The notes beneath the pieces were generated by a model that saw only the letters and a program-made list of their open reading frames with translations, was not told where the DNA came from and ran no database searches. A stretch of 64,000 nucleotides of DNA from Desulfobacterales bacterium. GTDB lineage: Bacteria; Desulfobacterota; Desulfobacteria; Desulfobacterales; UBA11574. Shown here in pieces: positions 9,747 to 51,785 of this stretch; within the stretch, counting starts at the first letter, position 1; every line of letters starts with the position of its first letter. The translations under genes were made by a program, and so were the position numbers. Location of the stretch: NCBI GenBank assembly GCA_030145345.1, contig JAQYVT010000001.1, positions 13,013 through 77,012 of the forward strand, in the 5' to 3' direction.

Positions 9747-11066
9747 ATGGGAAAAAACAGCTTACTTAAATCGACCTCCAAAGCCAAGAAAAAGGCGCCT
9801 GCTAAAAAAAAGGCGGCCGCCAAAGCAGCTGCAAAGGCCAAAGCAAGTCCCAAAGCCAAAGCCCTCCCAAAGGCCAAAAAGGCACCCGCAGCCAAAACTA
9901 AAAAAACCGCCCCGAAAACAACCCAGAAGAAGGTTTCTGTGAAAGATCTCATGATGAAAAAGTTCGACCTTTGGAAACCTGAAACCCTCTATACCGTGAG
10001 CCCGGATGAAACCGATTCAAAGGATTTTGCTGCACCGCCTTTTTTCTCCGGCTCAGAAGAAGAAACCCGTCGGATCAAGGAACTGCTGCTGAAAAAATTT
10101 GATCTGGCGGAAATCAAAGCCGCTGGCGAAAAGGCCGCTGCTGAAAAGGCCGCTGCTGAAAAGGCCGCCGCTGAAAAGGCCGCCGCTGAAAAGGCCGCCG
10201 CTGAAAAGGCCGCTGCTGAAAAGGCCGCCGCTGAAAAGGCCGCTGCTGAAAAGGCCGCCGCCGAAAAGGCCGCCGCCGAAAAGGCCGCCGCTGAAAAGGC
10301 CGCCGCTGAAAAGGCCGCTGCTGAAAAGGCCGCCGCTGAAAAGGCCGCCGCTGAAAAGGCCGCTGCTGAAAAGGCCGCCGCTGAAAAGGCCGCCGAACCT
10401 GAGGTGTCTGTATCATACGAACCCCCCGATAGTGGGGACACCATAACCGATGATCCCATGGAAAAAGCCATGAAATATCTGGCCGCCGCTTTCGCGGTTC
10501 TTATCGCACTGGTTATCGGAACCAGCATGATAAACAAAAATAAATTTTACATTCATGCAACAGACGGTGCGCTTGAAATCTGGCAGGGAAGATTCGCCCC
10601 CATGGGCGAGGCATGTTTGATCACGCTCCCCGGAGTTCAACCACCTGAAACAATTAAAGATATTTATTCCAAATCAGACGCCTTTCCCCTTATTTTCAAT
10701 TACTATGTGGAAAAGGCAGATACCCTTTTGACGGTTCCGGGGTTGCCGGATTTTGACGGTATTAAAACGTATTTGAACACGGCGCTGGCATATGCGACAA
10801 CACCGGCCGCCAACGAAGCTGTTTTTAGCCGCTTAAACAACATCGAACTGATGATTCTTCTATACAAGGCGGATGTATCCGCCAGCAAACCCACCCTTTC
10901 CGATCTTAATCAAGCCAAAGGATTTCTTTCGGAAGCGGCAAGACTGGGTATCGATGACCTTAAAGTCGATTTGATCCATCAAAAAATGGATGCCGTGGAT
11001 CAACAGATTGCGGCCCTGAAGGCCAAACAGGCGGCGAAAAAATCTCCGGCAACGCCGGCCAAATAG
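9747..11066 (+). CDS. Membrane-anchored repeat protein: K/A/P-rich histone-H1-like tail, (EKAAA)n helix, one TM helix, C-terminal extracytoplasmic domain
   Basis: 439 aa with an RBS-less but clean ORF. N-terminal KAKKKAPAKKKAAAKAAAKAKASPKAKALPKAKKAPAAK; two copies of [VI]K[DE]L[ML][ML]KKFDL; about 18 EKAAA pentads; the hydrophobic segment YLAAAFAVLIALVIGTSMI. A strong terminator follows. Confidence 0.8.
   Translation: MGKNSLLKSTSKAKKKAPAKKKAAAKAAAKAKASPKAKALPKAKKAPAAKTKKTAPKTTQKKVSVKDLMMKKFDLWKPETLYTVSPDETDSKDFAAPPFFSGSEEETRRIKELLLKKFDLAEIKAAGEKAAAEKAAAEKAAAEKAAAEKAAAEKAAAEKAAAEKAAAEKAAAEKAAAEKAAAEKAAAEKAAAEKAAAEKAAAEKAAAEKAAAEKAAEPEVSVSYEPPDSGDTITDDPMEKAMKYLAAAFAVLIALVIGTSMINKNKFYIHATDGALEIWQGRFAPMGEACLITLPGVQPPETIKDIYSKSDAFPLIFNYYVEKADTLLTVPGLPDFDGIKTYLNTALAYATTPAANEAVFSRLNNIELMILLYKADVSASKPTLSDLNQAKGFLSEAARLGIDDLKVDLIHQKMDAVDQQIAALKAKQAAKKSPATPAK
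10116..10397 (+). repeat. 15-bp tandem repeat (AAG GCC GCY GCY GAA), 17 complete units plus degenerate first and last units
   Basis: Read directly from the sequence. Units differ only at the third positions of two Ala codons (GCT/GCC). In frame within CDS 9747-11066. Confidence 0.95.
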
Positions 11067-11350: not shown

Positions 11351-13483
11351 ATGACCATTAGACGTGTCCTCATTTTTGCACCCATACTTCTCATTGTGGT
11401 CTTGTTGCAGTCGTATTTCTGGGTGCCGACCTACGAACAGCAAACAAGGGGCAATCCTGCGCGTCTTGCTGAATACATTGCCGGATCCATCGGTGATGCC
11501 AGCCTCCTTAATCCCATTCTTACAGCGGATTCTGCCAGCAGCAACATCCAGGACTTTGTGTTCGAGGGTCTTATTGACCGGGATGAGCAATTGCGCTTTA
11601 GGGGACGACTGGCCAAATCCTGGGAGGTTTTTGAAGAAGCTTTTTTTTATGTCAACCCATCCGCATCCATACCCGGTCTGGGCAAGGCGGACCCTCAAAC
11701 CCTAGCGGCCTTTGTGAAAGACGCGCAAAAAAAAAATCATGCAACAGATCCGGGGCTTAAAAATTCTCTAAAACGCATCACTGAAATTTCCGTGCTCCCG
11801 CCCAGTACCTTTTCGGTGACCCGGCCGTTCAAAGATCCGAATACCGACACACAGGAAACCATAGAAATCCGTGTTGCAGCACCCGCTAGAATCAAACTGG
11901 TTCTCAACGGCGTCGACCCGGATCTTTTTCAAAACCTGTCACACCTTCTGGGCAAAAATTACTTTGAGTCCTTTCACGGCAAAGACTACTTGAGTTCGCC
12001 GTCTCAGCACGGCAAAGAAAAATTGCCGGCATACGCCGAGGAACTGTTACCGGCCACTGAACACAACCCGATCCTGCTGTTTCACCTTCGGCCCGGGGTA
12101 AGGTTTCATGACGGCCATACGGTGGAAGCCGATGATGTCAAATTTACCTATGAAGCCATCATGAATCCCAAAAATCTTTCGCCTCGCATTTCAGATTACG
12201 AGCCGGTCAAAACGGTTCAAGTTGTTGACCCGCTGACCGTTAAAATCGTATACAAGCGGCTCTATTCTCCTGCCATTGGAACCTGGGGCATGGGAATCCT
12301 CCCCCAACACCTGCTGAATTCAAAAGCACTTGAAAAAGAAGCCTTGGGTCTGGGAAAAGACCTGAAAACTTTTTCCATGCGCCAGAGCACCTTCAACCGG
12401 CGCCCCATCGGATCCGGACCTTTCAAATTCCGTGAGTGGAAGTCGGACCAGTACATTACCCTGGATCGTTTCGACGACTACTGGGAAGGGCCGCCGAATT
12501 ATCAACGGTATGTCTTTCGGATTATTCCCGATCTTTTGACCCAGGAAATGGAATTTTATGCCGGCACCATCGACAGCTATGGTGTTCAACCCCACCAGGT
12601 GAAACGCTTGGAAAAAGATCCTAAATTTCAAAGCTTTGCCGGCACCGCTTTCGGCTATACCTATATCGGTTACAACATGAGACGAAAACCCTTTGATGAT
12701 CCCCGTGTACGAAGGGCATTGGGAATGGCCATTGATGTAGACAAGATCATCCAATACGTGCTGTATGGTCAGGGAGAACAAATCACCGGCCCTTTTGTCA
12801 AACAGACCGATTATTATAACCACCATATCCAGCCGCTTCCCTACGATCCCAAAGGTGCGTTAAAGCTGTTGGCGGCGGCCGGTTGGCAACGGAATAAGGA
12901 CGGCTGGCTTGAAAAAAACGGCCGGCGGTTTAAATTCACCCTCATCACCAACAGCGGCAACGATCTTCGAAAAGCCATACTGGCCATTGCCCAGAATGCA
13001 TGGAAACAGATCGGCATCGATGTCCGGACCGATCTTTTAGAGTGGTCTGTTTTTATACAAGAACGGGTAAACAAAGCAGATTTTGATGCGTTGATTTTGG
13101 GGTGGCAAATGGGAATCGAACCCGATCTATATCAGATATGGCATTCGAGCCAGACACATCCCTATCAGCTCAATTTTGTCAATTTTAAAAATCAAGAAGC
13201 CGACGATCTCATCATCAAGATACGGCAGGAATACACCCATGACCGACAGGTGGAATACTCGCACAGGCTTCATGAAATTATTGCAAAAGAACAGCCGTAT
13301 ACATTCCTTTATGTCGGAAAGTGGACCGCCGTTTTAGACAAGCGTATCGTCATAAAAGATGTCGATGATGCCGGAAACATACGGTATGAAAAAATAAAAC
13401 CCACCCAGACCGGCAATTATGCATTCTATTTCAACAAGTGGATAAAGCTTCCAAAGGCCCCGAACTTTATGGATGAAGGATAG
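11351..13483 (+). CDS. ABC transporter substrate-binding protein, family 5 (Opp/Dpp/nickel type), unusually long
   Basis: 710 aa with an N-terminal signal/anchor helix. LAKSWEV...FHLRPGVRFHDG and the YTFLY-type C-terminal motifs of family-5 SBPs are present. Confidence 0.85.
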   Translation: MTIRRVLIFAPILLIVVLLQSYFWVPTYEQQTRGNPARLAEYIAGSIGDASLLNPILTADSASSNIQDFVFEGLIDRDEQLRFRGRLAKSWEVFEEAFFYVNPSASIPGLGKADPQTLAAFVKDAQKKNHATDPGLKNSLKRITEISVLPPSTFSVTRPFKDPNTDTQETIEIRVAAPARIKLVLNGVDPDLFQNLSHLLGKNYFESFHGKDYLSSPSQHGKEKLPAYAEELLPATEHNPILLFHLRPGVRFHDGHTVEADDVKFTYEAIMNPKNLSPRISDYEPVKTVQVVDPLTVKIVYKRLYSPAIGTWGMGILPQHLLNSKALEKEALGLGKDLKTFSMRQSTFNRRPIGSGPFKFREWKSDQYITLDRFDDYWEGPPNYQRYVFRIIPDLLTQEMEFYAGTIDSYGVQPHQVKRLEKDPKFQSFAGTAFGYTYIGYNMRRKPFDDPRVRRALGMAIDVDKIIQYVLYGQGEQITGPFVKQTDYYNHHIQPLPYDPKGALKLLAAAGWQRNKDGWLEKNGRRFKFTLITNSGNDLRKAILAIAQNAWKQIGIDVRTDLLEWSVFIQERVNKADFDALILGWQMGIEPDLYQIWHSSQTHPYQLNFVNFKNQEADDLIIKIRQEYTHDRQVEYSHRLHEIIAKEQPYTFLYVGKWTAVLDKRIVIKDVDDAGNIRYEKIKPTQTGNYAFYFNKWIKLPKAPNFMDEG

Positions 13484-13486
13484 ACC

Positions 13487-14446
13487 ATGGTATCATTTAT
13501 CGGACGAAGTTTTGTACAAAAAATTATCACCCTCTTTTTTGTCTCCATCGTTTCTTTTTTGATTATTCATCTTGCACCGGGAAAACCGAGCCAGGTCGAT
13601 CCCATGAATCCAAAATTTACACCCGAAATGGTGGAACGCTTCAGCAAAGAATTCCATCTGGATAAGCCGCTGTATGTCCAGTATGTCTACTTTTATCAGG
13701 ACCTGTTTACCGGAAAAACCGCATCATGGAAAGACAATCAATCGGTCCTTAAAAAAATTTGGGAACGATTTCTAAACAGCCTCCCCCTGTTTATTGTGGG
13801 AACGCTCATAACCTGGACCCTTTCTTTCCCGGTCGGCATCCGGTCGGCCATTTTCAGAGAAGGCGTCTATGACCGAACCGCCACATTCTTGTCTTACTTG
13901 CTGATTTCCATACCCGGCTTCTTCTTCGCTTACGTTCTCATAATTTTTGTGGTGACCCGTTTCCATGTACCGGTTATCGGCATGGAAACTTTCGGGATCG
14001 GAGACGCTTCCCTCCCTTACATATTGATGGACAGGATCTGGCACATGCTCCTTCCCTCGGTCCTGGGAGCAACCGGCGGCATTGCAGTCCTTTCCCGGTA
14101 TGTTCGAAGCCAGATGCTGGAAGTGGAAGGTCAGGACTATATTCGAACCGCCCGGGCCAAGGGCCTTCCCCCGGAACAGGTCCATTATAAACATGCGCTC
14201 CGAAATGCGCTTCTGCCGTTCGTCACCATGTTCGGCCTGATTTTACCCGGTTTGATCGGGGGATCGGTCATCATCGAATCCATCTTTTCCTGGCCCGGCA
14301 TGGGGCGTATGGCCTATGAAGCGATTCTGGCCAGGGATTACCCGGTTATCCTGACGGTTAATTTTGTTTCAGCCGTTTTGGTGCTGGCCGGCACCTTTAT
14401 ATCGGACCTTCTTTACCTGATTGTCGACCCGAGGATACGCCTGTAA
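13487..14446 (+). CDS. ABC transporter permease (OppB/DppB-like)
   Basis: 319 aa, polytopic, with the IRTARAKGLP motif typical of OppB/DppB. Confidence 0.9.
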   Translation: MVSFIGRSFVQKIITLFFVSIVSFLIIHLAPGKPSQVDPMNPKFTPEMVERFSKEFHLDKPLYVQYVYFYQDLFTGKTASWKDNQSVLKKIWERFLNSLPLFIVGTLITWTLSFPVGIRSAIFREGVYDRTATFLSYLLISIPGFFFAYVLIIFVVTRFHVPVIGMETFGIGDASLPYILMDRIWHMLLPSVLGATGGIAVLSRYVRSQMLEVEGQDYIRTARAKGLPPEQVHYKHALRNALLPFVTMFGLILPGLIGGSVIIESIFSWPGMGRMAYEAILARDYPVILTVNFVSAVLVLAGTFISDLLYLIVDPRIRL

Positions 14447-15618
14447 TGAATCTGAATGAAACGACGGTTACCAAAGATTTCCATGTGGAGGCGCCGCTGA
14501 CCCCGAAGCGGACACGGTGGGAGGAATTCTGGCTTCTGTTCGGACAAAACCGGCTTGCCATTCTGGGGCTGCTCATTTTTATCCTGTTCTTCTGCTGCGC
14601 AATCACGGGTCTTTTCCTGACCTCGGGATCCAAGCCCATTTTTGATCCATCTTTGGTCCGCCTCGAGGAAAAGTTGCGACCCCCTTTTTCAAAACCCAAT
14701 CTCGACTTGCTGGAACCCGACCAAGTTCCAACCTTGAATTTCTATCTCATGGGAACCGATGATCTGGGAAGAGATGTTTTTGCGAGAATGCTTCAAGGGG
14801 CATGGGTTTCGCTGACCGTCGGTTTTGTTGCCGTGGGAATATCGGTACTCATCGGCATCTTCATGGGCGGAATTGCAGGCTATTTCGGACAACATTACCT
14901 TAAAATAGACCATATTCTGTTGACGTTATTATTGGTTTCAGGAACAGGACTGATAATTCTCGATGTTATCCGCTTCGGCGCGGCACTTTTATTGCTCTGC
15001 CTGGCATACATCGTTTATGCTGTCTTGACCCGGCACAGATCCAAGAAAAAAGCATCTCCATCATGGGGGGCAATGTTTCACATCAATGCGGTCTCCGTGG
15101 ACACCCTGATCATGAGAATCGTGGATATTATGCTCTGCTTTCCGAGCTTTTTTCTGATTTTAACGGTGGTGGCGATTCTCCCTGCAAGCATCTACAATAT
15201 TATGATCGTCATCGGATTGACCAGCTGGATGGGGACCACGAGGTTTGTCCGCGCTGAATTTCTCTCCCTGAGGGAACAGGACTTTGTGGCGGCGGCAAAG
15301 GCGCTGGGCATCGGTAATTTCAGGATCATCTTTCGGCACATGATGCCCAATGCCGTCGCGCCGGTGCTGGTCTCTGCCACCATCGGTATCGCTTCCGCCA
15401 TTTTGACAGAGGCCGGCTTAAGCTTTCTTGGATTCGGAGTCCCCCCGCCCCATGCCACCTGGGGCAATATCCTTTCGAACGGCAAAAACTTCATTTTTGA
15501 TGCGCCCTGGCTGACCTTCATTCCGGGGATCACCATATTGATCGTGGTGCTCTCTTTTAACCTTTTTGGTGAAGGTCTCAGGGATGTACTGAACCCGAAA
15601 CTCAGGGAAAGACATTAA
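14446..15618 (+). CDS. ABC transporter permease (OppC/DppC-like) with an internal insertion
   Basis: 390 aa. The motifs FVAAAKALGIGNFRIIFRHMMPN and DTLIMRIVDIMLCFPS are present. The start overlaps the previous stop (ATGA-type coupling). Confidence 0.9.
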   Translation: MNLNETTVTKDFHVEAPLTPKRTRWEEFWLLFGQNRLAILGLLIFILFFCCAITGLFLTSGSKPIFDPSLVRLEEKLRPPFSKPNLDLLEPDQVPTLNFYLMGTDDLGRDVFARMLQGAWVSLTVGFVAVGISVLIGIFMGGIAGYFGQHYLKIDHILLTLLLVSGTGLIILDVIRFGAALLLLCLAYIVYAVLTRHRSKKKASPSWGAMFHINAVSVDTLIMRIVDIMLCFPSFFLILTVVAILPASIYNIMIVIGLTSWMGTTRFVRAEFLSLREQDFVAAAKALGIGNFRIIFRHMMPNAVAPVLVSATIGIASAILTEAGLSFLGFGVPPPHATWGNILSNGKNFIFDAPWLTFIPGITILIVVLSFNLFGEGLRDVLNPKLRERH

Positions 15619-15624
15619 ACAAAG

Positions 15625-15839
15625 GGACGTGTTCAGGGGGTGCGCTTCCCCGTGTAACGATATTGGCGGAGTGGCTTCGTTATTTCAATGACTTAGCTGT
15701 GGGGGAGACCGCGGCTCCCGCATGCTTTTTGCGGGAGAACGCGGAGGGGGCAGGAATGCCCCCGCTGTTAAGTCTTTGAAATGACCAGACACATAGACAC
15801 CGGAGTGAAGCGGGGGAGCGCACCCCCTGAACACGTACA
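15625..15839 (+). mobile_element. MITE-like non-coding palindromic element, copy 1
   Basis: Terminal inverted repeats ACGTGTTCAGGGGGTGCGCTTCCCCG (15627-15652) and CGGGGGAGCGCACCCCCTGAACACGT (15811-15836) are 25/26 complementary. No ORF. A second copy lies at 42148-42389. AACAAAG flanks both sides (15618-15624 and 15840-15846). Confidence 0.7.
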
Positions 15840-15889
15840 AACAAAGAATTCCTAAAGTGAACTAAAGTATATAAATTTTAAAGAAAAAA

Positions 15890-16885
15890 ATGACAGACAA
15901 CAATACCCTTCTTTCCGTACGAGATTTAAAAGTATATTTTCGAAGCGGCGACGCCTGTGCCCGTGCCGTGGACGGGGTCCGTTTCGAGATCCGGAAAAAA
16001 GAGACGGTGTGTATTGTGGGTGAATCCGGATGCGGAAAAACCGTCTCTGCACTCAGCATCCTGGGCCTCGTTACAACGCCGCCCGGAGAAATCATCGCCG
16101 GCCGAATCGTGTTCGCAGGACGAAATCTCTTGGAACTCAGCGAAGAAGAGATGCAAAAGATCCGGGGAAACCATATTGCCATGGTTTTTCAAGAACCTCT
16201 GACATCGCTGAATCCGGTCTTTACCATCGGAGACCAGATCTCGGAAGCCGTCCGTATCCATAAAAAGATCGGGGCCCAATCGCTTCATGAAAAATGTATT
16301 CGGCTCTTGAAGGACGTGGGAATTTCCGCTCCTGAAAAACGACTTGAAGACTATCCCCATCAGCTCAGCGGCGGTCAGAGACAACGGGTTATGATCGCAA
16401 TGGCACTGGCGTGTGACCCGGATCTGATTATTGCAGATGAGCCGACCACCGCCCTTGATGTCACGATACAGGCTCAGATTCTTGCGCTTTTCGGGTCTAT
16501 TCAGAAAAAACAATCCATGTCGATTCTATATATTACCCATGATCTCGGCGTCGTGGCCGCCATCGCCGATCGGGTTTATGTCATGTATGCCGGCATCATT
16601 GCCGAGCAGGGAAATACGGAACAAATCTTTCGTAATGCCCGGCATCCGTATACTCAAGGACTCCTTGCATCGCTTCCCAGCCTTTCGAAACGGGGCCAAA
16701 GACTTTACAGCATCCCCGGAACGGTACCAAACCCGGCGTATAAGCCGGCAGGGTGCCCCTTTCATCCGAGGTGTCCCCATAAAGCGCCGAGCTGTTATAC
16801 AGAATATCCTAAAATGTGCGATTACGGCCAAGGGCATCTGGCCCGCTGTCCGATACTGTTTCAAAACGAAGGTCGTCAACCCTAG
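15890..16885 (+). CDS. ABC transporter ATP-binding protein (OppD/DppD-like)
   Basis: 331 aa with Walker A GESGCGKT, signature LSGGQRQR, and a C-terminal HPYTQGLL oligopeptide-transporter domain. Confidence 0.92.
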   Translation: MTDNNTLLSVRDLKVYFRSGDACARAVDGVRFEIRKKETVCIVGESGCGKTVSALSILGLVTTPPGEIIAGRIVFAGRNLLELSEEEMQKIRGNHIAMVFQEPLTSLNPVFTIGDQISEAVRIHKKIGAQSLHEKCIRLLKDVGISAPEKRLEDYPHQLSGGQRQRVMIAMALACDPDLIIADEPTTALDVTIQAQILALFGSIQKKQSMSILYITHDLGVVAAIADRVYVMYAGIIAEQGNTEQIFRNARHPYTQGLLASLPSLSKRGQRLYSIPGTVPNPAYKPAGCPFHPRCPHKAPSCYTEYPKMCDYGQGHLARCPILFQNEGRQP

Positions 16886-17878
16886 ATGAAATCAAAAAAT
16901 AAAAATAACCCCATCATTCTTTGCGTTAAAGATTTGAAAAAATATTTTCCCATACGCAGAGGTTTTTTCCAGAAAATCTCCGGGTGGGTGAACGCTGTGG
17001 ACGGCGTCAGTTTTGAAATCGAACGGGGAAAAACCATGGGTTTGGTGGGTGAAAGCGGCTGTGGAAAAACAACGGTCGCCCGATTGATTCTGAAGCTTCT
17101 GGCGCTGGATGAAGGAAAAATTATTTACCAGGGAATCGATATCAGTGGATTTTCCGAAAAAGAGATGAAACCCCACCGAAAAGAGATGCAGATTGTTTTC
17201 CAGGACCCCTTCGGATCACTGAATCCCCGAATGACCGTTGGCCAGTCTGTGGAAGAGGGGTTACGGATTCTTGGCCTCAAAAGCCACGGGATGCGCAAAG
17301 CCCGCCTTGAAAAACTCATGGAAATGGTGGGCATGTCCCCGGACAGCACCGACCGGTATCCCCATGAATTCAGCGGGGGCCAGCGCCAGCGTATCGGCAT
17401 TGCCCGAGCCTTGAGCGTGGAGCCGTCCCTGATCATATGCGATGAACCCATATCGGCCCTGGATGTCTCTATCCAGGCCCAGATCATTAACCTTTTAAAA
17501 GACTTGCAGGATCAGCTGGGGCTAAGTTATCTTTTCATCTCCCATGACCTTAATGTGGTGGGCTATCTGTGCAACACCATCGCGGTGATGTACATGGGAC
17601 AGGTCATGGAGTATGCATCTGCTGAAGACATTTTTGACAACCCGCATCATCCCTATACCCGGTCATTGCTCGCTGCGGTTCCCGATTCCGAGCCGGGAAA
17701 AAAAATGGAAATTACGCTTCCGAAAGAGGATGTTCCCGATTCCCCGGCGGCGCTCCAGGGATGTAAATACCGGTCTATGTGTTCCATGGAAGCGCCCCGC
17801 TGCCGGAAAGAGCAGGTCCTTTTCGAAAAAATCGGGGAAAAACATTTTGTCAGATGCTGGAAAGCAATGAAAAAATAA
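16886..17878 (+). CDS. ABC transporter ATP-binding protein (OppF/DppF-like)
   Basis: 330 aa with Walker A GESGCGKTT, signature FSGGQRQR and HPYTRSLL. The start abuts the previous stop. Confidence 0.92.
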   Translation: MKSKNKNNPIILCVKDLKKYFPIRRGFFQKISGWVNAVDGVSFEIERGKTMGLVGESGCGKTTVARLILKLLALDEGKIIYQGIDISGFSEKEMKPHRKEMQIVFQDPFGSLNPRMTVGQSVEEGLRILGLKSHGMRKARLEKLMEMVGMSPDSTDRYPHEFSGGQRQRIGIARALSVEPSLIICDEPISALDVSIQAQIINLLKDLQDQLGLSYLFISHDLNVVGYLCNTIAVMYMGQVMEYASAEDIFDNPHHPYTRSLLAAVPDSEPGKKMEITLPKEDVPDSPAALQGCKYRSMCSMEAPRCRKEQVLFEKIGEKHFVRCWKAMKK

Positions 17879-28395: not shown

Positions 28396-28558
28396 TTGTC
28401 GAAAAGCGCTCGGCGAAGCGGTGCGTTCATCCCGTTTTACCGGGATATACTGCGCGAGCTTAGCGCTTTACAAAAGGCTCAAACCAACGAATGGGAGGTT
28501 TTGAAACGGCTTCTAATAACATTAGAACGAATAGTTCTCCTCCAATTTAGTTGGAGAA
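28396..28558 (+). repeat. Diverged dispersed repeat, family 2, copy A
   Basis: Shares TTGTCGAAAAGC, GGGATATAyT, TTTACA..GGC and a 59-nt 3' module (CAAACCAACGAAT...TTGAAA..GC.TCTAA...GTTCT; 42/59 identical by hand alignment) with 42668-42861, collinear and in the same orientation. Confidence 0.6.
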
Positions 28559-28567
28559 GAGGGTTCG

Positions 28568-28593
28568 AGGATTCAGGGGGTCAAGGGTCCAAG
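28568..28593. repeat. Left arm of the 26-nt inverted repeat bracketing the IVS-protein pseudogene
   Basis: AGGATTCAGGGGGTCAAGGGTCCAAG. Its reverse complement occurs at 28962-28987 with one mismatch. Confidence 0.9.
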
Positions 28594-28949
28594 CGTTTGT
28601 TATCCAACGATTTTATCAGCGCTTTGAGCATCCTTTCAACTTCCTCTTTATCATCCTTGAGAGCCTTTAAATTTTCTTTATTTACATAATTTAAATCACC
28701 TGAAAGCAGGACCTGGGTCTCCTATTCGCAAACAGAACCATAGGCAATATATAATGACCTCAAGTCGTCTGCAGTTATCTTCCTGCCATATCCTTATGCA
28801 ATATTTGAAGGAATCGACACAGCGGCCTTTCTGATCTGAGATGTCAGACCGTATCTTTCTTTTGGAAAATTTTTTGTTATTCTATAAAGATCCAAAGAGA
28901 GTTTGTACGACGTTTGCCAAGCTTTCAGATCTCTGTAATTCTTAAGCAT
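28581..28949 (-). pseudogene. Four-helix-bundle protein (23S rRNA intervening-sequence protein / Avd-like family) inactivated by two in-frame stops
   Basis: Hand translation of the minus strand gives MLKNYRDLKAWQTSYKLSLDLYRITKNFPKERYGLTSQIRKAAVSIPSNIA*GYGRKITADDLRSLYIAYGSVCE*ETQVLLSGDLNYVNKENLKALKDDKEEVERMLKALIKSLDNKRLDP. It matches the family hallmarks YGLTSQ.RRAAVSIPSNIAEG and ELETQ. A TAA at 28794-28796 replaces the conserved Glu, and a TAG at 28722-28724 replaces the conserved Leu. Confidence 0.8.
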
Positions 28950-28961
28950 TTCATTCGAATC

Positions 28962-28987
28962 CTTGGACCCTTGACCCCTTGAATCCT
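28962..28987. repeat. Right arm of the 26-nt inverted repeat bracketing the IVS-protein pseudogene
   Basis: CTTGGACCCTTGACCCCTTGAATCCT is 25/26 complementary to 28568-28593. Confidence 0.9.
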
Positions 28988-40934: not shown

Positions 40935-41747
40935 TTATTCCTTATGACTATATAGGTGCACGTCTCGCTGTGGAAAGGGAATTGAAACGCCTTCTGCATC
41001 AAAGCGCTTTTTAATGGTTTCGGTTACATCAAACCAAAGATCCCAATAATCCAAAACGTTCACCCATGGACGAACCGCAAAATCCACACTGCTGTCTCCC
41101 AGCGCTAACACCGCAATTTTGGGAGGCGGGTCTTTCAAGACACGGGGATCATTATCAATGACATCGGTGATAATATTTCTGGCCTTATCCATATCGTCAC
41201 CATAGCCAATGCCAAAAACCATATCCACCCGCCGGGTTCCCTTTGCGGAGAAGTTTACGATGTTGTCGCCGCTTAACTTTGCGTTGGGGATAATTATGGT
41301 CTTGTTGTCGGGTGTTTTCAACTGTGTGGTGAAGATTTGAATTTTTTCAACGGTTCCTGCAACCCCGGCACCTTCGATGAACTCCCCGACCTTGAACGGT
41401 CGGAAAATAATCATCAAAAACCCGGCGGCAAAGTTTGAGAGAGACCCCTGCAGCGCAAGACCGATGGCAAGACCGGCGGCACCGATAACCGCGATAAACG
41501 AGGTTGTTTGTATGCCGAGCTGTCCCAGCGCCGCCAAAACCACGAAAATCAATAAAGCGATGTAGATCAAATGGGCGACAAAGGAGACGATGGTGGGATC
41601 CACCTGCCTTTTGTTCATTATTTTTTCTGCAACACCGCTCAAGCCCTTGGCGACCCATCGCCCCACGATCAAAACCGCAATGGCGGCAACGACTTTAAGG
41701 CCGTAAATCGTCAGCAACTCCCAAATTTTTGCAACGATATTTTCCAC
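40935..41747 (-). CDS. Small-conductance mechanosensitive channel (MscS family)
   Basis: Three TM helices followed by the MscS beta-domain (FKVGEFIEGAGVAGTVEKIQIFTTQLKTPDNKTIIIPN). The start was set at a GTG (VENIVAK) with AAGGA 8 nt upstream; the track uses the TTG at 41795. Confidence 0.85.
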   Translation of the reverse strand: MENIVAKIWELLTIYGLKVVAAIAVLIVGRWVAKGLSGVAEKIMNKRQVDPTIVSFVAHLIYIALLIFVVLAALGQLGIQTTSFIAVIGAAGLAIGLALQGSLSNFAAGFLMIIFRPFKVGEFIEGAGVAGTVEKIQIFTTQLKTPDNKTIIIPNAKLSGDNIVNFSAKGTRRVDMVFGIGYGDDMDKARNIITDVIDNDPRVLKDPPPKIAVLALGDSSVDFAVRPWVNVLDYWDLWFDVTETIKKRFDAEGVSIPFPQRDVHLYSHKE

Positions 41748-42147
41748 AGTTGAAATCCTTTTTGAATAATTGTTTGAACCCCCACCATATATCAATCAAA
41801 TTGCCGAAAGGTCAGCGAACCGATGTTAAAAACCATAAAAATCCTTTTTGGAAAAAATACCACAGGGTTTTTGGGATGTTTAAATTCGAATGAAAAATTG
41901 AGCCCTATTCGAATTTTATTAATCACCGATCAAACTTTTTAAGTTTATGCAGGAATGGGAAACAACAGATATCAAAGCAATAACTATGCCAAGGGTGGTG
42001 AATGCCGTATCGCTTACAGGGGAATGAACTTAAACATTATTCTATAACACATTCACAACTTAATGCAACAGTGTCGAAGTATTTTTCCTTTTTTTGAAGT
42101 AACGGTTCACCGCATATCTGCCATTGGCATCCATCGATTTTTTTGTT

Positions 42148-42389
42148 CATGTTCAGGGGGTGCGCTTCTCCGAGTAACGATACCTGCCCGCTCGTGCCTT
42201 GCATGGCAGGCGGGTTCGCGGAGTGGTTTGGTCATTTCAATGACTTAGCTGTGGGGGAGACTGCGGCTCCCCCACAGCTTTTTGCTGAAGAACGCGGAGG
42301 GGGCAGGAATGCCCCCGATGCTAAGTCTTTTTAATGACCAGACACGGTGACACCCGAGTGAAACAGGGAAGCGCACCCCCTGAACACGT
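42148..42389 (+). mobile_element. MITE-like non-coding palindromic element, copy 2
   Basis: Same termini as copy 1 (GTTCAGGGGGTGCGCTTC...GAAGCGCACCCCCTGAACACGT). Long identical blocks include ATTTCAATGACTTAGCTGTGGGGGAGAC, AGAACGCGGAGGGGGCAGGAATGCCCCCG and AATGACCAGACAC. It carries an extra insert of about 32 nt. Confidence 0.7.
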
Positions 42390-42419
42390 CGGACTTTTTA
42401 TCTAAAAAGGGGCTTTATC

Positions 42420-42667: not shown

Positions 42668-42861
42668 TTGTCGAAAAGCCATTATGGATGGAGCGGGTAT
42701 ATTTTGCAGCTGTTTGAAGGCAACCGGCCGAGTTCTACAAATTTAGTGCCACGCCCTTGACCTTTTACAGGGCCATAGGGCGCAAACCAACGAATCTTAG
42801 ATCTTGAAATAGCGTCTAACCAATTGAAATAAAAGGTTCTATCCCTACTTTATTTGGCCGC
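42668..42861 (+). repeat. Diverged dispersed repeat, family 2, copy B
   Basis: Collinear similarity to 28396-28558 (see that entry). It lies between the predicted promoter and the cfa RBS. Confidence 0.6.
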
Positions 42862-42885: not shown

Positions 42886-44004
42886 ATGGATAGCAATACG
42901 TTTTATAAAAAAATACAGCACCTTTTATCCTTTGCCGATGTTAAAATCAACGGGGACCGTCCATGGGACATACAGGTTCACAATGAAAAACTATACCCGA
43001 GAATTCTGGCTGAAGGCTCCCTGGGGTTGGGCGAAGCATACATGGACGGTTGGTGGGACTGTGAAAATCTTGATGGGTTGGTTTATAGAGTCCTAAAGGC
43101 GAATCTCGACGCTAAGGTCAATGCCTGGAAGGATCTATTCTCGTTTTTAAATGCCAGGCTTTTCAATTTGCAAAAGACGTCCCGGGCTTTTCAAATCGGC
43201 CGGCATCATTACGATATCGGCAATGAGCTCTACCAACACATGCTCGACAGGCTTTGGATCTACAGTTGTGGTTATTGGAAGAATGCTTCCACCCTGGATG
43301 AAGCCCAGGAAGCAAAGCTGGACCTGATCTGCCGAAAGTTACAGCTTCAACCGGGAATGCGCGTTCTCGATATTGGCTGTGGTTGGGGAGGAACTGCCAA
43401 ATTCATCGCCGAACAGTATCACGCCGATGTTGTGGGTATTACCGTTTCCGAAAAACAGGCTGGTTTTGCAAAAGAATTCTGCCGTGGCCTGCCCGTCGAG
43501 ATCCGTATGGAGGATTATCGAAGCCTGAAAGGCGTTTTCGATAGAATTGTTTCCATCGGTATGATCGAGCATGTGGGGTACAAAAACTACAAAACATTTA
43601 TGCAGGTGGTCCATCGATGTCTCAAGGAAGAGGGTCTCTTCCTCCTGCAAACCATCGGTAGTAACCGGTGTAAAAAAAATTGCGATCTTTGGGTCGAGCG
43701 GTATATATTTCCGAATTCAATGTTGCCGTCGCCCAAACAACTCACTGTCGCAATGGAAAACCTATTCATCCTTGAAGACTGGCATAATTTCGGCACTGAT
43801 TATGATAAAACCTTGATGCACTGGTTTCAAAATTTCCAAAACAGCTGGTATCTTCTCAAAGATAAATACGGTGATCGTTTCTACCGGATGTGGAAATTTT
43901 ATCTGTTGTCCCTTGCCGGCGCTTTCCGCGCCAAAAGAAACCAGTTGTGGCAGATCGTCCTTTCCCCCAACGGGGTTTCCAATGGATATTGCGCACCATG
44001 CTAA
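42886..44004 (+). CDS. cfa: Cyclopropane-fatty-acyl-phospholipid synthase
   Basis: 372 aa with HYDIGNELY, YSCGYWKNA..LDEAQEAKLDLICRKLQLQPGMRVLDIGCGWGG, closely parallel to E. coli Cfa. Confidence 0.93.
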   Translation: MDSNTFYKKIQHLLSFADVKINGDRPWDIQVHNEKLYPRILAEGSLGLGEAYMDGWWDCENLDGLVYRVLKANLDAKVNAWKDLFSFLNARLFNLQKTSRAFQIGRHHYDIGNELYQHMLDRLWIYSCGYWKNASTLDEAQEAKLDLICRKLQLQPGMRVLDIGCGWGGTAKFIAEQYHADVVGITVSEKQAGFAKEFCRGLPVEIRMEDYRSLKGVFDRIVSIGMIEHVGYKNYKTFMQVVHRCLKEEGLFLLQTIGSNRCKKNCDLWVERYIFPNSMLPSPKQLTVAMENLFILEDWHNFGTDYDKTLMHWFQNFQNSWYLLKDKYGDRFYRMWKFYLLSLAGAFRAKRNQLWQIVLSPNGVSNGYCAPC

Positions 44005-46721: not shown

Positions 46722-49700
46722 TTAAAAAAGTTTTAGCTGTGACGGACCCGACTTTTTTTTCTTTCCCGGAACCGGCGCTTCGTGGGCTAACAGGTGTTCT
46801 TCTATTTTACCGACAAACGGTGACAGCTCCCGTTTCTCGGTTTTCCCGAAAATCCTTCGTTTTTTTGCAAAAGTGAGATAGAGCCGTTGCTTGGCGCGGG
46901 TCATGGCAACGTAAAAAAGGCGTCGTTCTTCTTCGATATCCGGTGGCGACCCCTTTGTGTCCGGCCGCTGAAACGGCAGGAATCCTTTTTCGCACCCGGT
47001 AACAAATACCACCGGGAATTCAAGTCCTTTGGCAGCGTGCATGGTCATCAAGGCAACCTTTTCAGATCGATGACTGTAAGTGTCCGTATCACTCCCACAC
47101 GCAGCCGCACGCCATACACCCGTTTTATTAAAACCGAAATTTTTGAAGATATCCATCAGGTGTTCAAGCGCTTCTTTTTCCTTGGGCCCCGTGTTAAATA
47201 TCTTGGACAATCGGGTGTTTTCCAAAAGAAAAATCAGCTTTTCCTCCATAGACATGGCCGCCGTCTTTTGTTTCATTTCCAAAATGTTATCCAAAAATTC
47301 GTTGAGCCGCTTCTGCCGAATCTTGCCCATGCCGTTGATGGGAAACCGGCGTGCATTGATCAACCCTGTTTTTAGGGAAAAACGGTTTTGGTAACACCAT
47401 TTTTTAAAGATTTCCGAACTCTGCTTACCAACCGTCGGTTTGGATATATTTAAAGTCCTTTCAAAATCTGAATAACATCCGGACCCTTCGATTATTTTTA
47501 ACAATGAAATTAATTCTGTTATGCCGGTTTTGCCGAATAGGTTTTCCCGGTTAACAATTTGATATGGAATGCCGGCGGCATCAAAAACTTTGGAAATGAC
47601 CCTGTGTTGTTCGGACGTTCGATATAGAACGGCAAAATCGGAAAAGCTGATATTGGGTGTTTGACGGTGTTGGGTCACACGGTCAAAATCAAATGAATGA
47701 AATCCCATTCCACCGATCAATTGTTCGATGGTTCTTCCCACCGCCACAGCTTCTGATTTTTCAGAATACGTATCGATCACCCGGATGGTCTTTTCGCCGT
47801 GGATCTCGGAGAAGATCCGCTCTTTAAATCCGTCTTTTTTCTGGGGTTCGATGACCTGATAAGATGCGTCCAAAATGGTTTGGGTGGACCTGTAATTTTT
47901 TGTCAGATTAACGACTTCGGCTCCAGGATGATCTTCGACAAATCTCTTAAAATATTTGACATTGGAGCCCCTAAACCCGTAAATGGACTGGTCCGGATCA
48001 CCGATCACACAAATGTTACGGTTAGAACCCGGGGGTACAAGGGCTTTTATGAGCCGGTATTGACCATAGTTCAAATCTTGATACTCATCCACAAAAATAA
48101 ATTTAAAAAGATCTCTGCACGTCTCACAAAACCGATGATCTGTTTCAAGAATTCGAACGGCATTGAATATCAGATCTTCATAGTCGTAAAGTCTTTGGAT
48201 TTCCAACAAGTTTTGATACGTCGTATATACGGATAAAAATACCCGGGGAAATTCATCGCCACATTCATCGGGTTTAAGTATCCGTTGTTTGGCGCGAACG
48301 ATCCCGTCTAACAGGTTTTTGGGTTTAATGTTGACCGGGATACCCATCCCCTCGACGTGTTGGATCGCATCTGAAATTAGGGATATTCGGTCATTGTCGT
48401 CGATAAGGTAACGTGTTTTTTCTTCATAATTATTTAATAGCTCGAAGCAAAAACCATGAAATGTTCCGATAAAAGGATCTTGTTTTGGCCGGTCCAACAG
48501 AAGTTCGAGTCTTTGACGCATTTCCTGGGCAGCTTTGTTTGTAAATGTCACGGCCACGATATGTTCCGGTAATACCCTCTTGGTTTTTATTAAGTGTGCA
48601 ATTCTTTGCGTCAGGGTACGTGTTTTTCCGGTTCCAGGACCTGCTACGACCATCAACGGCCCGCTTTTATGCGCCACGACCTGTTTCTGTTTTTGGTTTA
48701 ATTCGCCGGGTTCAAATTTTTGTCCGGTTATTTTCTCGGGGGTAGATTCTTTGCTCACATTTCTGGGGGTATATTGTTTCGAAGTTTTCCCACCCCTTTT
48801 CTTTTTCCCCAAAGGGGGTTGGAAGGGACTGGAAATAAAGAGAGATTTTTGACCCAGCAGACGGTTTCGTTCGTCCTGACCGAATATTTTTATCTTCCCA
48901 AACTCTCCGTCAAATCCCGGAATAATATCGATTTCACTTCGGCGAACCCTCGAAATTGCTTCACCCAGCAAAGGAATCCCTGCGTCGTCGAGGATCTCTT
49001 TTTTAAGGGTCGTTAGAATGTCGAATTCAGGTCCCAGTGTTTCAATTAACGACCGATACGTTCCCGCGACCTTTTTAGAGGCCGGCCCCACTTTCAAAAC
49101 TTCCGACAATATCTCCACAAGGGGGATCGTGTTATAAAACGGATGGTGTCCATCGGGTTTCTCTCCTTCCTTTCGATCCGATAGTTCCTCGACCCTGTAT
49201 AACACCCCCAAAGTCAGGGGTTTTTCACAAACCGGACAGATGCCGCCCCTTTTACGCGTCTGTTTGGGCCAACTGCGCACGTTACATTTCCGATGTCCAT
49301 CAATATGATATTTTCCTTCTTCGGGATAAAACTCAAAGGTACCCAAAAATTTCTCAGAATCCCCGCTCTCCATGGCAGACCTTATGGCGGTGTAAGAGAG
49401 GTCCGTATCAAAAATATTGGCCTCTCGTCCCAGTTTCATGGGGGAGTGGGCATCAGAACTTGATACAAGAGTCAGTCCATCCAATCCAGATACCCGCCAG
49501 TTCATCGAAGGGTCCGAAGAAAGACCGGTTTCAGCTGCAAATATGTAATCGGCAAGATCTTCAAAACATTCTTCAAGGGAATCAAAACCGGATTTTGAAC
49601 CCAGCAATGAAAACCAGGGTGTCCAAATATGCGCTGGAATGAGAAATCCCCCATCAGAAGTCTCAAGAAGAATTTCAAGAAGGTTTCTAGCATCAAGTCC

Positions 49701-50120
49701 GAGTATCGGCCGCCCGTCTGATTTGATATTTCCAATTTTATCCAATCTTAAATTAAATTTTTCGGCCTTATCCAGATCGGATAAAAATACAAGATTATGA
49801 TTTTTCCGGGTTTTGTCGTTTTTTTTATAAATATTGCTGATTTCAGAAACCAGCATAAACCGGACGTCTCGGCGGCATGTTGTAGGAACTTCTTGATCAC
49901 AGACGGCGGATATTTCTTTTTTTAATTTGAACAGTCCCGGCTCAGCCGGTACCAGTTTTTCTTTGATTTCGGAAAACCATCCCGGATGTGTAAAATCTCC
50001 GGTTCCAATGACCGTTATACCTTTTAGCTGTGCAGCGATGTACAGGTTTTCAAGGTCAAGATTCTTGGCCGTTGCTCTTGAAAAATGGGAATGAACATGG
50101 AAATCAGCGATAAATTTCAT
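46722..50120 (-). CDS. Fusion protein: EndoQ-like PHP-domain endonuclease (N-terminal ~430 aa) plus UvrD/PcrA-type SF1 helicase (C-terminal ~700 aa)
   Basis: N-terminus: DFHVHSHFSRA, GTGDFTHPGW, GRP, PAHIWTPWFS, SSDAHSP.KLGREAN, GKYH, the Zn-finger-like ICPVCEKPLTLGVLYRVEEL, and PGFDGEFGKIKIF. These match EndoQ hallmarks from memory. C-terminus: Walker A AGPGTGKTRTL, DEYQD, and the TMHAAKGLEF / VAMTRAK helicase motifs. Confidence 0.85.
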   Translation of the reverse strand: MKFIADFHVHSHFSRATAKNLDLENLYIAAQLKGITVIGTGDFTHPGWFSEIKEKLVPAEPGLFKLKKEISAVCDQEVPTTCRRDVRFMLVSEISNIYKKNDKTRKNHNLVFLSDLDKAEKFNLRLDKIGNIKSDGRPILGLDARNLLEILLETSDGGFLIPAHIWTPWFSLLGSKSGFDSLEECFEDLADYIFAAETGLSSDPSMNWRVSGLDGLTLVSSSDAHSPMKLGREANIFDTDLSYTAIRSAMESGDSEKFLGTFEFYPEEGKYHIDGHRKCNVRSWPKQTRKRGGICPVCEKPLTLGVLYRVEELSDRKEGEKPDGHHPFYNTIPLVEILSEVLKVGPASKKVAGTYRSLIETLGPEFDILTTLKKEILDDAGIPLLGEAISRVRRSEIDIIPGFDGEFGKIKIFGQDERNRLLGQKSLFISSPFQPPLGKKKRGGKTSKQYTPRNVSKESTPEKITGQKFEPGELNQKQKQVVAHKSGPLMVVAGPGTGKTRTLTQRIAHLIKTKRVLPEHIVAVTFTNKAAQEMRQRLELLLDRPKQDPFIGTFHGFCFELLNNYEEKTRYLIDDNDRISLISDAIQHVEGMGIPVNIKPKNLLDGIVRAKQRILKPDECGDEFPRVFLSVYTTYQNLLEIQRLYDYEDLIFNAVRILETDHRFCETCRDLFKFIFVDEYQDLNYGQYRLIKALVPPGSNRNICVIGDPDQSIYGFRGSNVKYFKRFVEDHPGAEVVNLTKNYRSTQTILDASYQVIEPQKKDGFKERIFSEIHGEKTIRVIDTYSEKSEAVAVGRTIEQLIGGMGFHSFDFDRVTQHRQTPNISFSDFAVLYRTSEQHRVISKVFDAAGIPYQIVNRENLFGKTGITELISLLKIIEGSGCYSDFERTLNISKPTVGKQSSEIFKKWCYQNRFSLKTGLINARRFPINGMGKIRQKRLNEFLDNILEMKQKTAAMSMEEKLIFLLENTRLSKIFNTGPKEKEALEHLMDIFKNFGFNKTGVWRAAACGSDTDTYSHRSEKVALMTMHAAKGLEFPVVFVTGCEKGFLPFQRPDTKGSPPDIEEERRLFYVAMTRAKQRLYLTFAKKRRIFGKTEKRELSPFVGKIEEHLLAHEAPVPGKKKKSGPSQLKLF

Positions 50121-50666: not shown

Positions 50667-51785
50667 ATGAAGTTTAAAATTAAAAAGGAAGACATTCTGG
50701 ATGTATTGTCCAAGGTTCAAGGAATAACCGGACGAAAAAGCAATCTGGCTATTACCTCGAATATTCTTATTAAAACAACAGGTAATGGTATAAAATTAGT
50801 GATAACGGATCTTGAAACCGGTTTCGAAGGAATATATCCGGCGGACATTGAATCTCAAGGCACCATAACGATAAATTCAAGAAAGTTTTATGAAATTGTT
50901 AAAGAATTTCCGAGCAAAGAAATACAAGTCGATGAAGTTGAGAATTATTGGATCAAAATTCACAATAAAAATGTTGAGTATAATATTGTTGGAATGAATC
51001 CCGATGATTTTCCTGAAACTCCAGAGATAGAAGATGTTGATTTTTTTACCGTCGATTCCCAAATTTTTAAAGACATGATCGAAAAAACGATCATTATTTC
51101 GGGTGCTCCTGATGAAAAAAGAACCCATATCACCGGAATATATTTTGAATTACAGCACCAAAAGAAAGAAAACATATTCAGAATGGTTTCAACAGACGGC
51201 AACCGTCTTTCAAAAGTGGATTGTATTTATGAAAAAGATTTAAAACTGCCTAAAAAGACCGGTATACTGGTCCCCAAAAAAGGAATGAGTGAAGTTGTAA
51301 AATTTTTAGATTCCACAGGAACCGTTAAAATTGGTATCAAAAATAATAATTTTATTATAAAAAAGGACTTCGAAACAATTATAATTAGGCTTCTCGAAGG
51401 TAATTTTCCAGAATATGGGGATATTATAAAAAGGGGATCTTCCCATGCGATCCATATGGATCGCAAAATGTTTGTATCCATGCTGAAAAGAATGTCTATT
51501 TTGTCTTCAGAAGATTACAAAGGGGTTATTTTTAATTTTAAAGAAGATAACCTTTCCATAACCACAACAAATCCGGAATTGGGTGAATCAAAAGAAGACA
51601 TGGTTATCGACTATAAGGGAGATCCCATAGAAGTTGCTTTTAATCCCAGATACATTATGGAAACCATGAGCGTAATTGATTCTGATAAAATAATTGTTAA
51701 TATAATCGATAGTGAAAAACCCTGTTTACTCGAAGGGGAGAATGACGACACCTATTTAAGTGTAATCATGCCGATGAGAATATGA
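50667..51785 (+). CDS. dnaN: DNA polymerase III beta sliding clamp
   Basis: 372 aa with [20 protein letters not shown]...; the three-domain length; the C-terminal [19 protein letters not shown]. Confidence 0.95.

Follow-up and report, generated by a model that had tools for sequence, protein, structure and literature searches.

Bacterial MITEs such as Correia/NEMIS of Neisseria, ERIC, RUP, MITEAba12 and the elements of Coxiella and Cardinium are short, non-coding, bounded by terminal inverted repeats (TIRs), and flanked by a target-site duplication (TSD) of fixed length. They are present in multiple copies, lie in intergenic DNA, are often co-transcribed, form a long hairpin, and show deletion derivatives and presence/absence polymorphism. 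The repeat described here resembles them in these respects. Another kind of repeat is the REP/BIME palindrome, spread by RAYT, an IS200/IS605-like Y1 transposase. REP/BIME sequences are GC-rich extragenic palindromes dispersed in intergenic DNA, and Y1 transposition makes no target duplication. Duplications of 8 bp are made by several other IS families, namely IS256, ISL3, IS1595, and IS6, and these families have GG...-type ends. IS66 elements carry 20–30-bp inverted repeats that start with GTAAGCG and are flanked by 8-bp direct repeats (PMC11946415). ISDge4 of Deinococcus geothermalis, a member of the single-ORF ISBst12 group, has the TIR GTAACTGCTCAGCA and an 8-bp direct repeat (PMC12898284).

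The window, the whole stretch of 64,000 nucleotides of Desulfobacterales DNA that was analyzed, contains an opp/dpp-type ABC operon of five genes, which were identified by Pfam searches on the orthologues (Table 1). The junctions of this operon are 0–3 nt long or overlapping, and the sole large gap, of 271 nt, lies between the second permease gene and the first ATPase gene. An earlier note on this DNA, made from the sequence, had described a tightly packed operon interrupted by a non-coding segment, and had proposed that a MITE-like element is inserted just after the oppC stop codon. Both statements agree with the results below. The TAA stop codon of oppC (15616-15618) is preserved by the duplication, since the left TSD copy overlaps its last two bases. 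Downstream of the insertion, oppD keeps its original upstream spacer of 49–51 nt. The inserted element, referred to as copy A, does not contain any complete ORF of at least 60 aa, and a scan of 15400-16000 found no sigma-70-like outward promoter.

Table 1. Coordinates of the operon genes, the two repeat copies, and their parts in the window
Feature	Position	Strand	Basis or remark
Substrate-binding protein (SBP) gene of opp/dpp-type ABC operon	11351-13483		
First permease gene, opp/dpp-type ABC operon	13487-14446		
oppC-like ABC permease gene, intact	14446-15618	+	PF00528; orthologues
Left 8-bp TSD copy AAACAAAG	15617-15624	+	Sequence, TSD register
MITE copy A, 214 bp, non-coding	15625-15838	+	Family alignment and TSD register; absent from orthologous loci
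Left terminal inverted repeat GGACGTGTTCAGGGGGTGCGCTTCCCCG; family consensus start GTACG	15625-15652	+	26-nt core and 22-copy alignment
Internal imperfect inverted repeat with two enclosed small GC hairpins (15715-15737, 15746-15763)	15679-15785	+	Repeat search, fold, sequence
Right terminal inverted repeat CGGGGGAGCGCACCCCCTGAACACGTAC	15811-15838	+	26-nt core and 22-copy alignment
Right 8-bp TSD copy AAACAAAG	15839-15846	+	Sequence, TSD register, empty-site alignment
oppD-like ABC ATPase gene	15890-16885	+	ORF list, Pfam of orthologues, empty-site alignment
Second ATPase gene, opp/dpp-type ABC operon	16886-17878		
MITE copy B, 247 bp, old, degenerate	42145-42391	+	88% identical to copy A; TSD reduced by decay to 5/8 matches
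32-nt GC-rich hairpin module CCTGCCCGCTCGTGCCTTGCATGGCAGGCGGG nested in copy B	42183-42214	+	Comparison with copy A, family alignment

Copy A is built as an inverted repeat with precise ends. Its 28-nt TIRs are complementary at 26 of 28 positions and directly abut a perfect 8-bp TSD. The ends were set by lining up 24 elements with their flanks, which placed the boundary 5 nt beyond the core TGTTCAGG on each side. The 26-nt inverted arms of the earlier note (25/26 complementary) were recovered at 15627-15652 and 15811-15836, and the ends set here lie 2 nt outside them on each side. A duplication had been recognized there as a 7-mer offset by 2–3 nt from the arms. The duplication itself stands, but the offset does not, and the repeated sequence is the 8-mer AAACAAAG abutting the true ends. 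Self-complementarity within the arms had also been reported, and an imperfect inverted repeat with inner 27-nt arms (15679-15705 and 15759-15785, 81%) was found. The asymmetric center gives copy A an orientation. In the hairpin CTCCCGC-ATGCTTTTT-GCGGGAG (15715-15737), the T-run sits in the loop and not 3' of the stem. The GC hairpin with an associated T-run exists as the note had it, but it is not a canonical terminator. The 18-mer GTTCAGGGGGTGCGCTTC occurs four times in the window, at both ends of two elements, where shuffled sequences are expected to contain it 0.03 times. The second of these elements, copy B, corresponds to the copy that had been placed at 42148-42389 in the same orientation.

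That copy A is an insertion is proven by the empty orthologous site. Orthologous opp operons with the same five genes and with OppC proteins 93–95% identical were found in contigs L117, L124, and L125. In all three, the oppC stop codon is followed by 49 nt and then by oppD, the element is absent, and the 8-mer is present once, as (G/A)AACAAAG. In the alignment the relatives read ...GACACTGAACAAAGAATGCC... and the window reads ...GACATTAAACAAAG[214 bp]AAACAAAGAATTCC..., so that the window equals the sequence of the relatives plus 214 bp plus 8 bp. Copy A is a recent, lineage-specific insertion, and it damaged neither of the two coding sequences nor the region upstream of oppD. The earlier note had stated that a lack of further copies, together with conservation of the segment at distant oppC-oppD junctions, would point to a resident RNA. 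What was found is the reverse: many further copies and empty sites. Its proposal of a MITE-like insertion is borne out by the empty site, by family-wide 8-bp TSDs, and by dozens of dispersed copies.

A blastn search with copy A returned full-length copies that are 87–97% identical, in both orientations, in Desulfobacterales-type MAGs. Searching with the family consensus gave at least 68 places (copies or fragments) in 61 loci, in Desulfobacterales-type MAGs and sediment metagenomes. At least 18 of these places are in one MAG, JAHECI01; other MAGs carrying the family are JAQBBE, CAWBNO, DATKWE, JARRRC, CAXMTB, JAFCZV, CALLDL, and JAAXQD, which makes at least nine MAG species in total. A one-genome-per-species scan for TGTTCAGGGGGTGCGC returned at least 116 stretches, many of them chance matches in unrelated phyla, and blastn against a plasmid collection gave 27-nt chance matches alone. 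The family is common in uncultured marine relatives of sulfate reducers.

The family consensus ends are GTACG...CGTAC, with the variants GTAAG, GTGCG, and GTATG, and the TIRs are conserved across 22 aligned copies. Among 32 elements with both TIRs, the flanking 8-mers match at 8/8 positions in 16 and at 7/8 in seven (23/32 with a TSD); shuffled flank pairs reach 7/8 or more in 0.6% of cases. This signal is confined to a boundary placed 5 nt beyond TGTTCAGG. The TSD varies in sequence, is fixed at 8 bp in length, and has a GC content of 31% versus 46% for the window. A few copies have no recognizable TSD (L008 2813-3026, L049, L089). Among the copies listed, copy A is the closest to the family consensus (98.1%). 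All 23 full copies are intergenic with respect to ORFs of at least 90 aa. Between co-directional neighbors, the element is co-oriented in five cases and opposed in four, and tight spacers between co-directional genes also host copies in L010, L017, and L086. Deletion derivatives of 66–135 bp retain TIRs and TSDs, and one 37-bp remnant consists of little beyond the fused ends. Changes that match between the two TIRs are seen in one copy, L008 1813-2026, as an isolated case. Many contigs at the least, among the matches listed, terminate inside the element, as expected of a repeat that breaks short-read assemblies. Another TIR-bounded element of the window, at 28568-28987, was considered as a relative and rejected as a different repeat, since it is without a TSD and contains a 23S_rRNA_IVP pseudogene.

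Taken together, the segment is a genuine bacterial MITE: it is non-coding and shorter than about 600 bp, has TIRs at its exact ends, a TSD of fixed length, dispersed copies, and a precise empty site. It is an ordinary kind of selfish DNA and reveals no new regulatory RNA or mechanism. A literature search by terminal sequences gave unrelated primer matches alone, and among the papers listed by a further search none paired MITEs with Desulfobacter-type bacteria; the family thus has no earlier description in the literature searched.

Copy B provides a view of an older insertion. It lies between an MscS-like gene (40935-41747, minus strand) and a CMAS-like gene (42886-44004), and differs from copy A by an extra 32-nt hairpin inserted after element position 38. 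This 32-nt module defines a 'long' subfamily, and modules of the same kind stand alone, outside any MITE, in L049 and L139. A further 80-nt palindrome is also found nested inside the element family. Copy B is present at the orthologous CMAS-MscS spacer in all four contigs examined (L156, L157, L158, and L159), whose MscS-like proteins are 89–96% identical; the copy in L159 has lost its left end and is without the 32-nt module. Between lineages, copy B is 82–84% identical, as compared with 83–87% for the whole spacer, and its arms no longer pair well. Since its divergence matches that of the spacer and its arms pair poorly, copy B drifts neutrally. It is an old insertion common to the relatives, and its decay keeps pace with that of the intergenic DNA around it. 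One sample yielded both L124, whose opp site is empty, and L159, whose MscS site is filled. The activity of the family thus spans a long period, with copy A as a recent event.

A transposase gene that could serve the family was sought in the window, in genomes, in metagenomes, and in viral contigs. Outside the opp operon, the 29 largest ORFs of the window proved to be housekeeping or regulatory genes. For these ORFs, and for an IS66-type tblastn probe, it holds true that the window contains no transposase, as had been claimed. An exact-match genome scan found no autonomous element with these TIRs among the matches listed. Ten ORFs beside lone TIRs are ordinary genes encoding, for example, an AAA ATPase, a radical SAM protein, MoeA, Lon, and an MFS transporter. 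The metagenomes were scanned for a TIR followed by 'not C' at the place of the right TIR, for both the short and the long subfamily, so that intact MITEs were skipped. The 28 loci listed by this exact-match scan are truncated or deleted copies, copies with an extra insert, or chance matches, and none of them has a distant second TIR. By inspection of their translations, the neighboring ORFs in these metagenome loci resemble ordinary metabolic and membrane proteins. Scanning viral contigs by exact match gave, among the matches listed, one chance match, in a coding region. A tblastn search with an IS66-family transposase of the PF03050 type against 1.2 Mb of collected loci gave no match.

The explanation that we regard as by far the most probable is that the segment is a MITE, a non-coding non-autonomous DNA transposon, recently inserted in the opp operon as tolerated selfish DNA. 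A transposase supplied in trans would bind the 28-nt TIRs, and a staggered 8-bp cut, preferably in AT-rich intergenic DNA, would receive the element; gap repair would then yield the 8-bp duplication. Copy A would have entered the spacer right after the oppC stop codon recently, within the lineage, copy B being much older. Co-transcription of copy A with the opp operon is very probable, and in the transcript the element would fold into a long, imperfect hairpin (about −129 kcal/mol). In this explanation, whatever influence copy A has on the expression of the operon is a side effect that was not selected for.

The rival readings differ in whether they give the element a function or another mode of spread. 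It could be a resident structured RNA of the opp operon, that is, a cis-regulatory element, a processing site, or an sRNA kept for its fold. The computed RNA folds are indeed very stable (−129.1 kcal/mol and z = −11 for copy A, z = −9.8 for copy B), and the element probably lies inside the operon transcript, but such stability follows trivially from its being an inverted repeat. Moreover, orthologous opp operons are entirely without it, and copies occur at unrelated loci in both orientations. The earlier note had held that a match to a known Rfam family would speak against a mobile insertion; Rfam gave no match for the whole window at the gathering score, and for the element at E ≤ 10 the best hit scored 11.3 bits against a threshold of 45 bits (E = 2.4). 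In RNAalifold with 22 copies, the covariation term is −0.22 kcal/mol, and a double change occurs in 3 of 70 pairs; covariation is essentially absent, the copies differing too little from one another and such double changes as occur being singletons. In copy B, old and shared with orthologous loci, mismatches build up in the arms at the neutral rate. The reading as a resident structured RNA is largely refuted, and we consider it extremely improbable. A related reading holds that the MITE has been domesticated and serves within the operon as an attenuator, a terminator, or an RNase III site, so that the expression of permease and ATPase is uncoupled; RNase III could plausibly take the long hairpin as a substrate. 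The copies in tight co-directional spacers of three other loci would also fit, as would a weak terminator-like site (15703-15719) that has a stem of 5 bp and ends in the tail GCATGCTTTT. This site is marginal, however, being one of three found in the region against 0.8 expected, two of which are inside oppC, and no GC-rich stem followed by a U-run, as in an intrinsic terminator, is present at 15715-15737. Both orientations are tolerated, and a strong oriented signal would be hard to reconcile with the ratio of 5:4. Besides being lineage-specific, the insertion is so young, as judged by its closeness to the consensus, that there has been little time for selection. Domestication is accordingly highly improbable. 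The note's suggestion that the element imposes polarity or supplies an RNA processing site finds no backing in the position of the T-run, the 5:4 orientation, or the neutral decay of the old copy. There is no sign of a selected regulatory RNA role, and these data show a lack of structural constraint; an effect on the processing of the operon mRNA is possible but unsupported.

With regard to the mode of spread, the element could instead be a REP/BIME palindrome mobilized by RAYT, or a MITE of one of the other DDE families that make 8-bp duplications (IS256, ISL3, IS1595, or IS6). It is GC-rich, palindromic, and intergenic, and the 32-nt hairpin, found both within some copies and on its own, is REP-like in size and shape. 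The length of the duplication is likewise one that several of these IS families produce. In contrast to what Y1 transposition would leave, 23 of the 32 copies have a TSD, and a 214-bp element with 28-nt terminal repeats differs from a hairpin of 20–40 nt. The other DDE families are disfavored by the termini, which begin with GTA..., as in IS66-family ends. Both forms of this reading are together very unlikely, and the MITE reading given above is preferred.

Several consequences follow from the MITE reading. A family consensus would aid repeat masking and scaffolding of Desulfobacterales MAGs, in which the family breaks assemblies. Sites of presence/absence, such as the opp junction, are handy markers of strains or lineages in sediment metagenomes. 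The family is also a candidate for MITEs mobilized by transposases of the single-ORF IS66 type, a group with poorly characterized transposition. A more far-reaching version would be that of an orphan MITE, active across many uncultured marine Desulfobacterales species with no autonomous partner that matches it closely, and cross-mobilized by a distant ISBst12-type IS66 transposase. It would serve as a landing pad for second-order mobile palindromes, and some of its copies inside operons, copy A for instance, might change mRNA processing to a measurable degree. We consider this version unlikely.

Among known systems, the named MITEs of other bacteria share the organization of this element and differ from it in that their sequences are unrelated, its hosts are uncultured marine or sediment Desulfobacterales, and no cognate IS was found for it. 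As to the ends, the closest counterparts are in the IS66 family. Unlike IS66 elements, the MITE has no transposase gene and no sequence similarity to them beyond the tip. The termini GTA(C/A)GTGTTCAG and the 8-bp duplication match those of single-ORF (ISBst12-type) IS66-family elements. One such element, at 14113-15741 of pHTA426, encodes a transposase that matches PF03050 (1.9e-64) and NF033517; its ends are GTATCTATTCAGCCC and GTAACTATTCAGCCC, and it is flanked on both sides by the 8-bp repeat GACGAGTT. When the MITE end, GTA(C/A)GTGTTCAGGG, is set beside those of ISDge4 (GTAACTGCTCAGCA) and of the pHTA426 element (GTA(T/A)CTATTCAGCC), two elements chosen after the fact, 9–10 of 14 positions agree with each. 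Common to all three are G1 T2 A3, T6, and T9 C10 A11 G12, which gives the end signature GTA-N2-T-N2-TCAG shared with the ISBst12 group. An ISBst12-type transposase is favored because of the shared termini and the length of the duplication. Since no partner element was found, the IS66 step is one that we infer, and we give about an even chance to mobilization of the MITE by an ISBst12-type, single-ORF IS66-family transposase. The 28-nt inverted repeat of the MITE falls inside the 20–30-nt range of IS66 elements. Its tip, GTACGTG in the consensus and GTAAGTG in variants, agrees with the canonical IS66 tip GTAAGCG at 5–6 of 7 positions, and the ISBst12-type ends fit it more closely.

The MITE is a non-coding palindromic transposon family with copies in the window. 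Two loci from other genomes, L008 and L049, belong to two MAG species that share one orthologous insertion of the MITE, and no target duplication flanks it (3/8 and 1/8 matching positions in the 8-bp direct repeat that would abut the ends). The duplication could be missing because two copies recombined with each other, or because of a deletion next to the element. Another copy in L008 has the identical two substitutions in both terminal repeats (GTGTGCCTCCCC in each arm), so that its arms are perfectly complementary. The paired substitutions are an isolated case, and they could hint at end-to-end correction or at a distinct sub-lineage. The extreme deletion derivatives retain hardly anything beyond terminal repeats fused to each other, and their flanking 8-bp repeats still match at seven or eight of eight positions. 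Such tiny derivatives arose either by internal deletion in place or as very small versions that are still mobile.

Coordinates of the features discussed (window, unless a comparison locus is named)
Feature	Position	Strand	Description
Orthologous MITE insertion	L008 2813-3026; L049 734-979		
MITE with paired substitutions	L008 1813-2026		
MITE deletion derivative	L080 2071-2107		37 bp
MITE deletion derivative	L136 3916-3995		80 bp
MITE deletion derivative	L145 5782-5847		66 bp
Second inverted-repeat element	28568-28987		26-nt terminal arms, AGGATTCAGGGGGTCAAGGGTCCAAG, 25/26 complementary
ORF inside this element	28794-28949	minus	PF05635, E = 1.8e-16
46-nt direct repeat	28471-28516; 42774-42819		76% identical
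UvrD-type helicase gene	46722-50120	minus	upstream of dnaN
dnaN and gyrB	50667-54217		
Repetitive ORF	9747-11066		439 aa
Tandem 15-nt units	10056-10460		about 27 units
32-nt GC hairpin	42183-42214		
Solitary 32-nt hairpin	L049 1825-1856; L139 10240-10271		

A second repeat bounded by inverted repeats lies in the window and is unrelated to the MITE. Its interior, 368 nt and AT-rich, contains a minus-strand ORF with a PF05635 match, which belongs to a broken gene encoding a four-helix-bundle protein of the 23S rRNA-intervening-sequence type. No target duplication flanks this element; related copies occur at three comparison loci (L115, L140, and L152). There is also a direct repeat of 46 nt, both copies of which are intergenic; each lies not far from one of the window's repeat elements.

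Elsewhere in the window, dnaN and gyrB lie side by side, with a 546-nt AT-rich gap between the helicase gene and dnaN. No dnaA is found directly upstream of dnaN in the window. The dnaN-gyrB region may be near the replication origin. Tandem 15-nt units fall within an ORF whose product weakly matches histone H1-like HC2 and extensin-like repeats and is therefore a repetitive low-complexity protein.

The 32-nt GC hairpin is the marker of the 'long' MITE copies. At two orthologous MITE sites, one in L008 and L049 and the other in the window and L159, the contig of a relative, one lineage has the hairpin and the other lacks it. At three loci (L138, L139, and L151) an additional GC-rich palindrome, about 80 nt long, is nested in the module, and at two loci the hairpin is solitary, with no surrounding MITE. 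The module may be an independent mini-element similar to REP elements.
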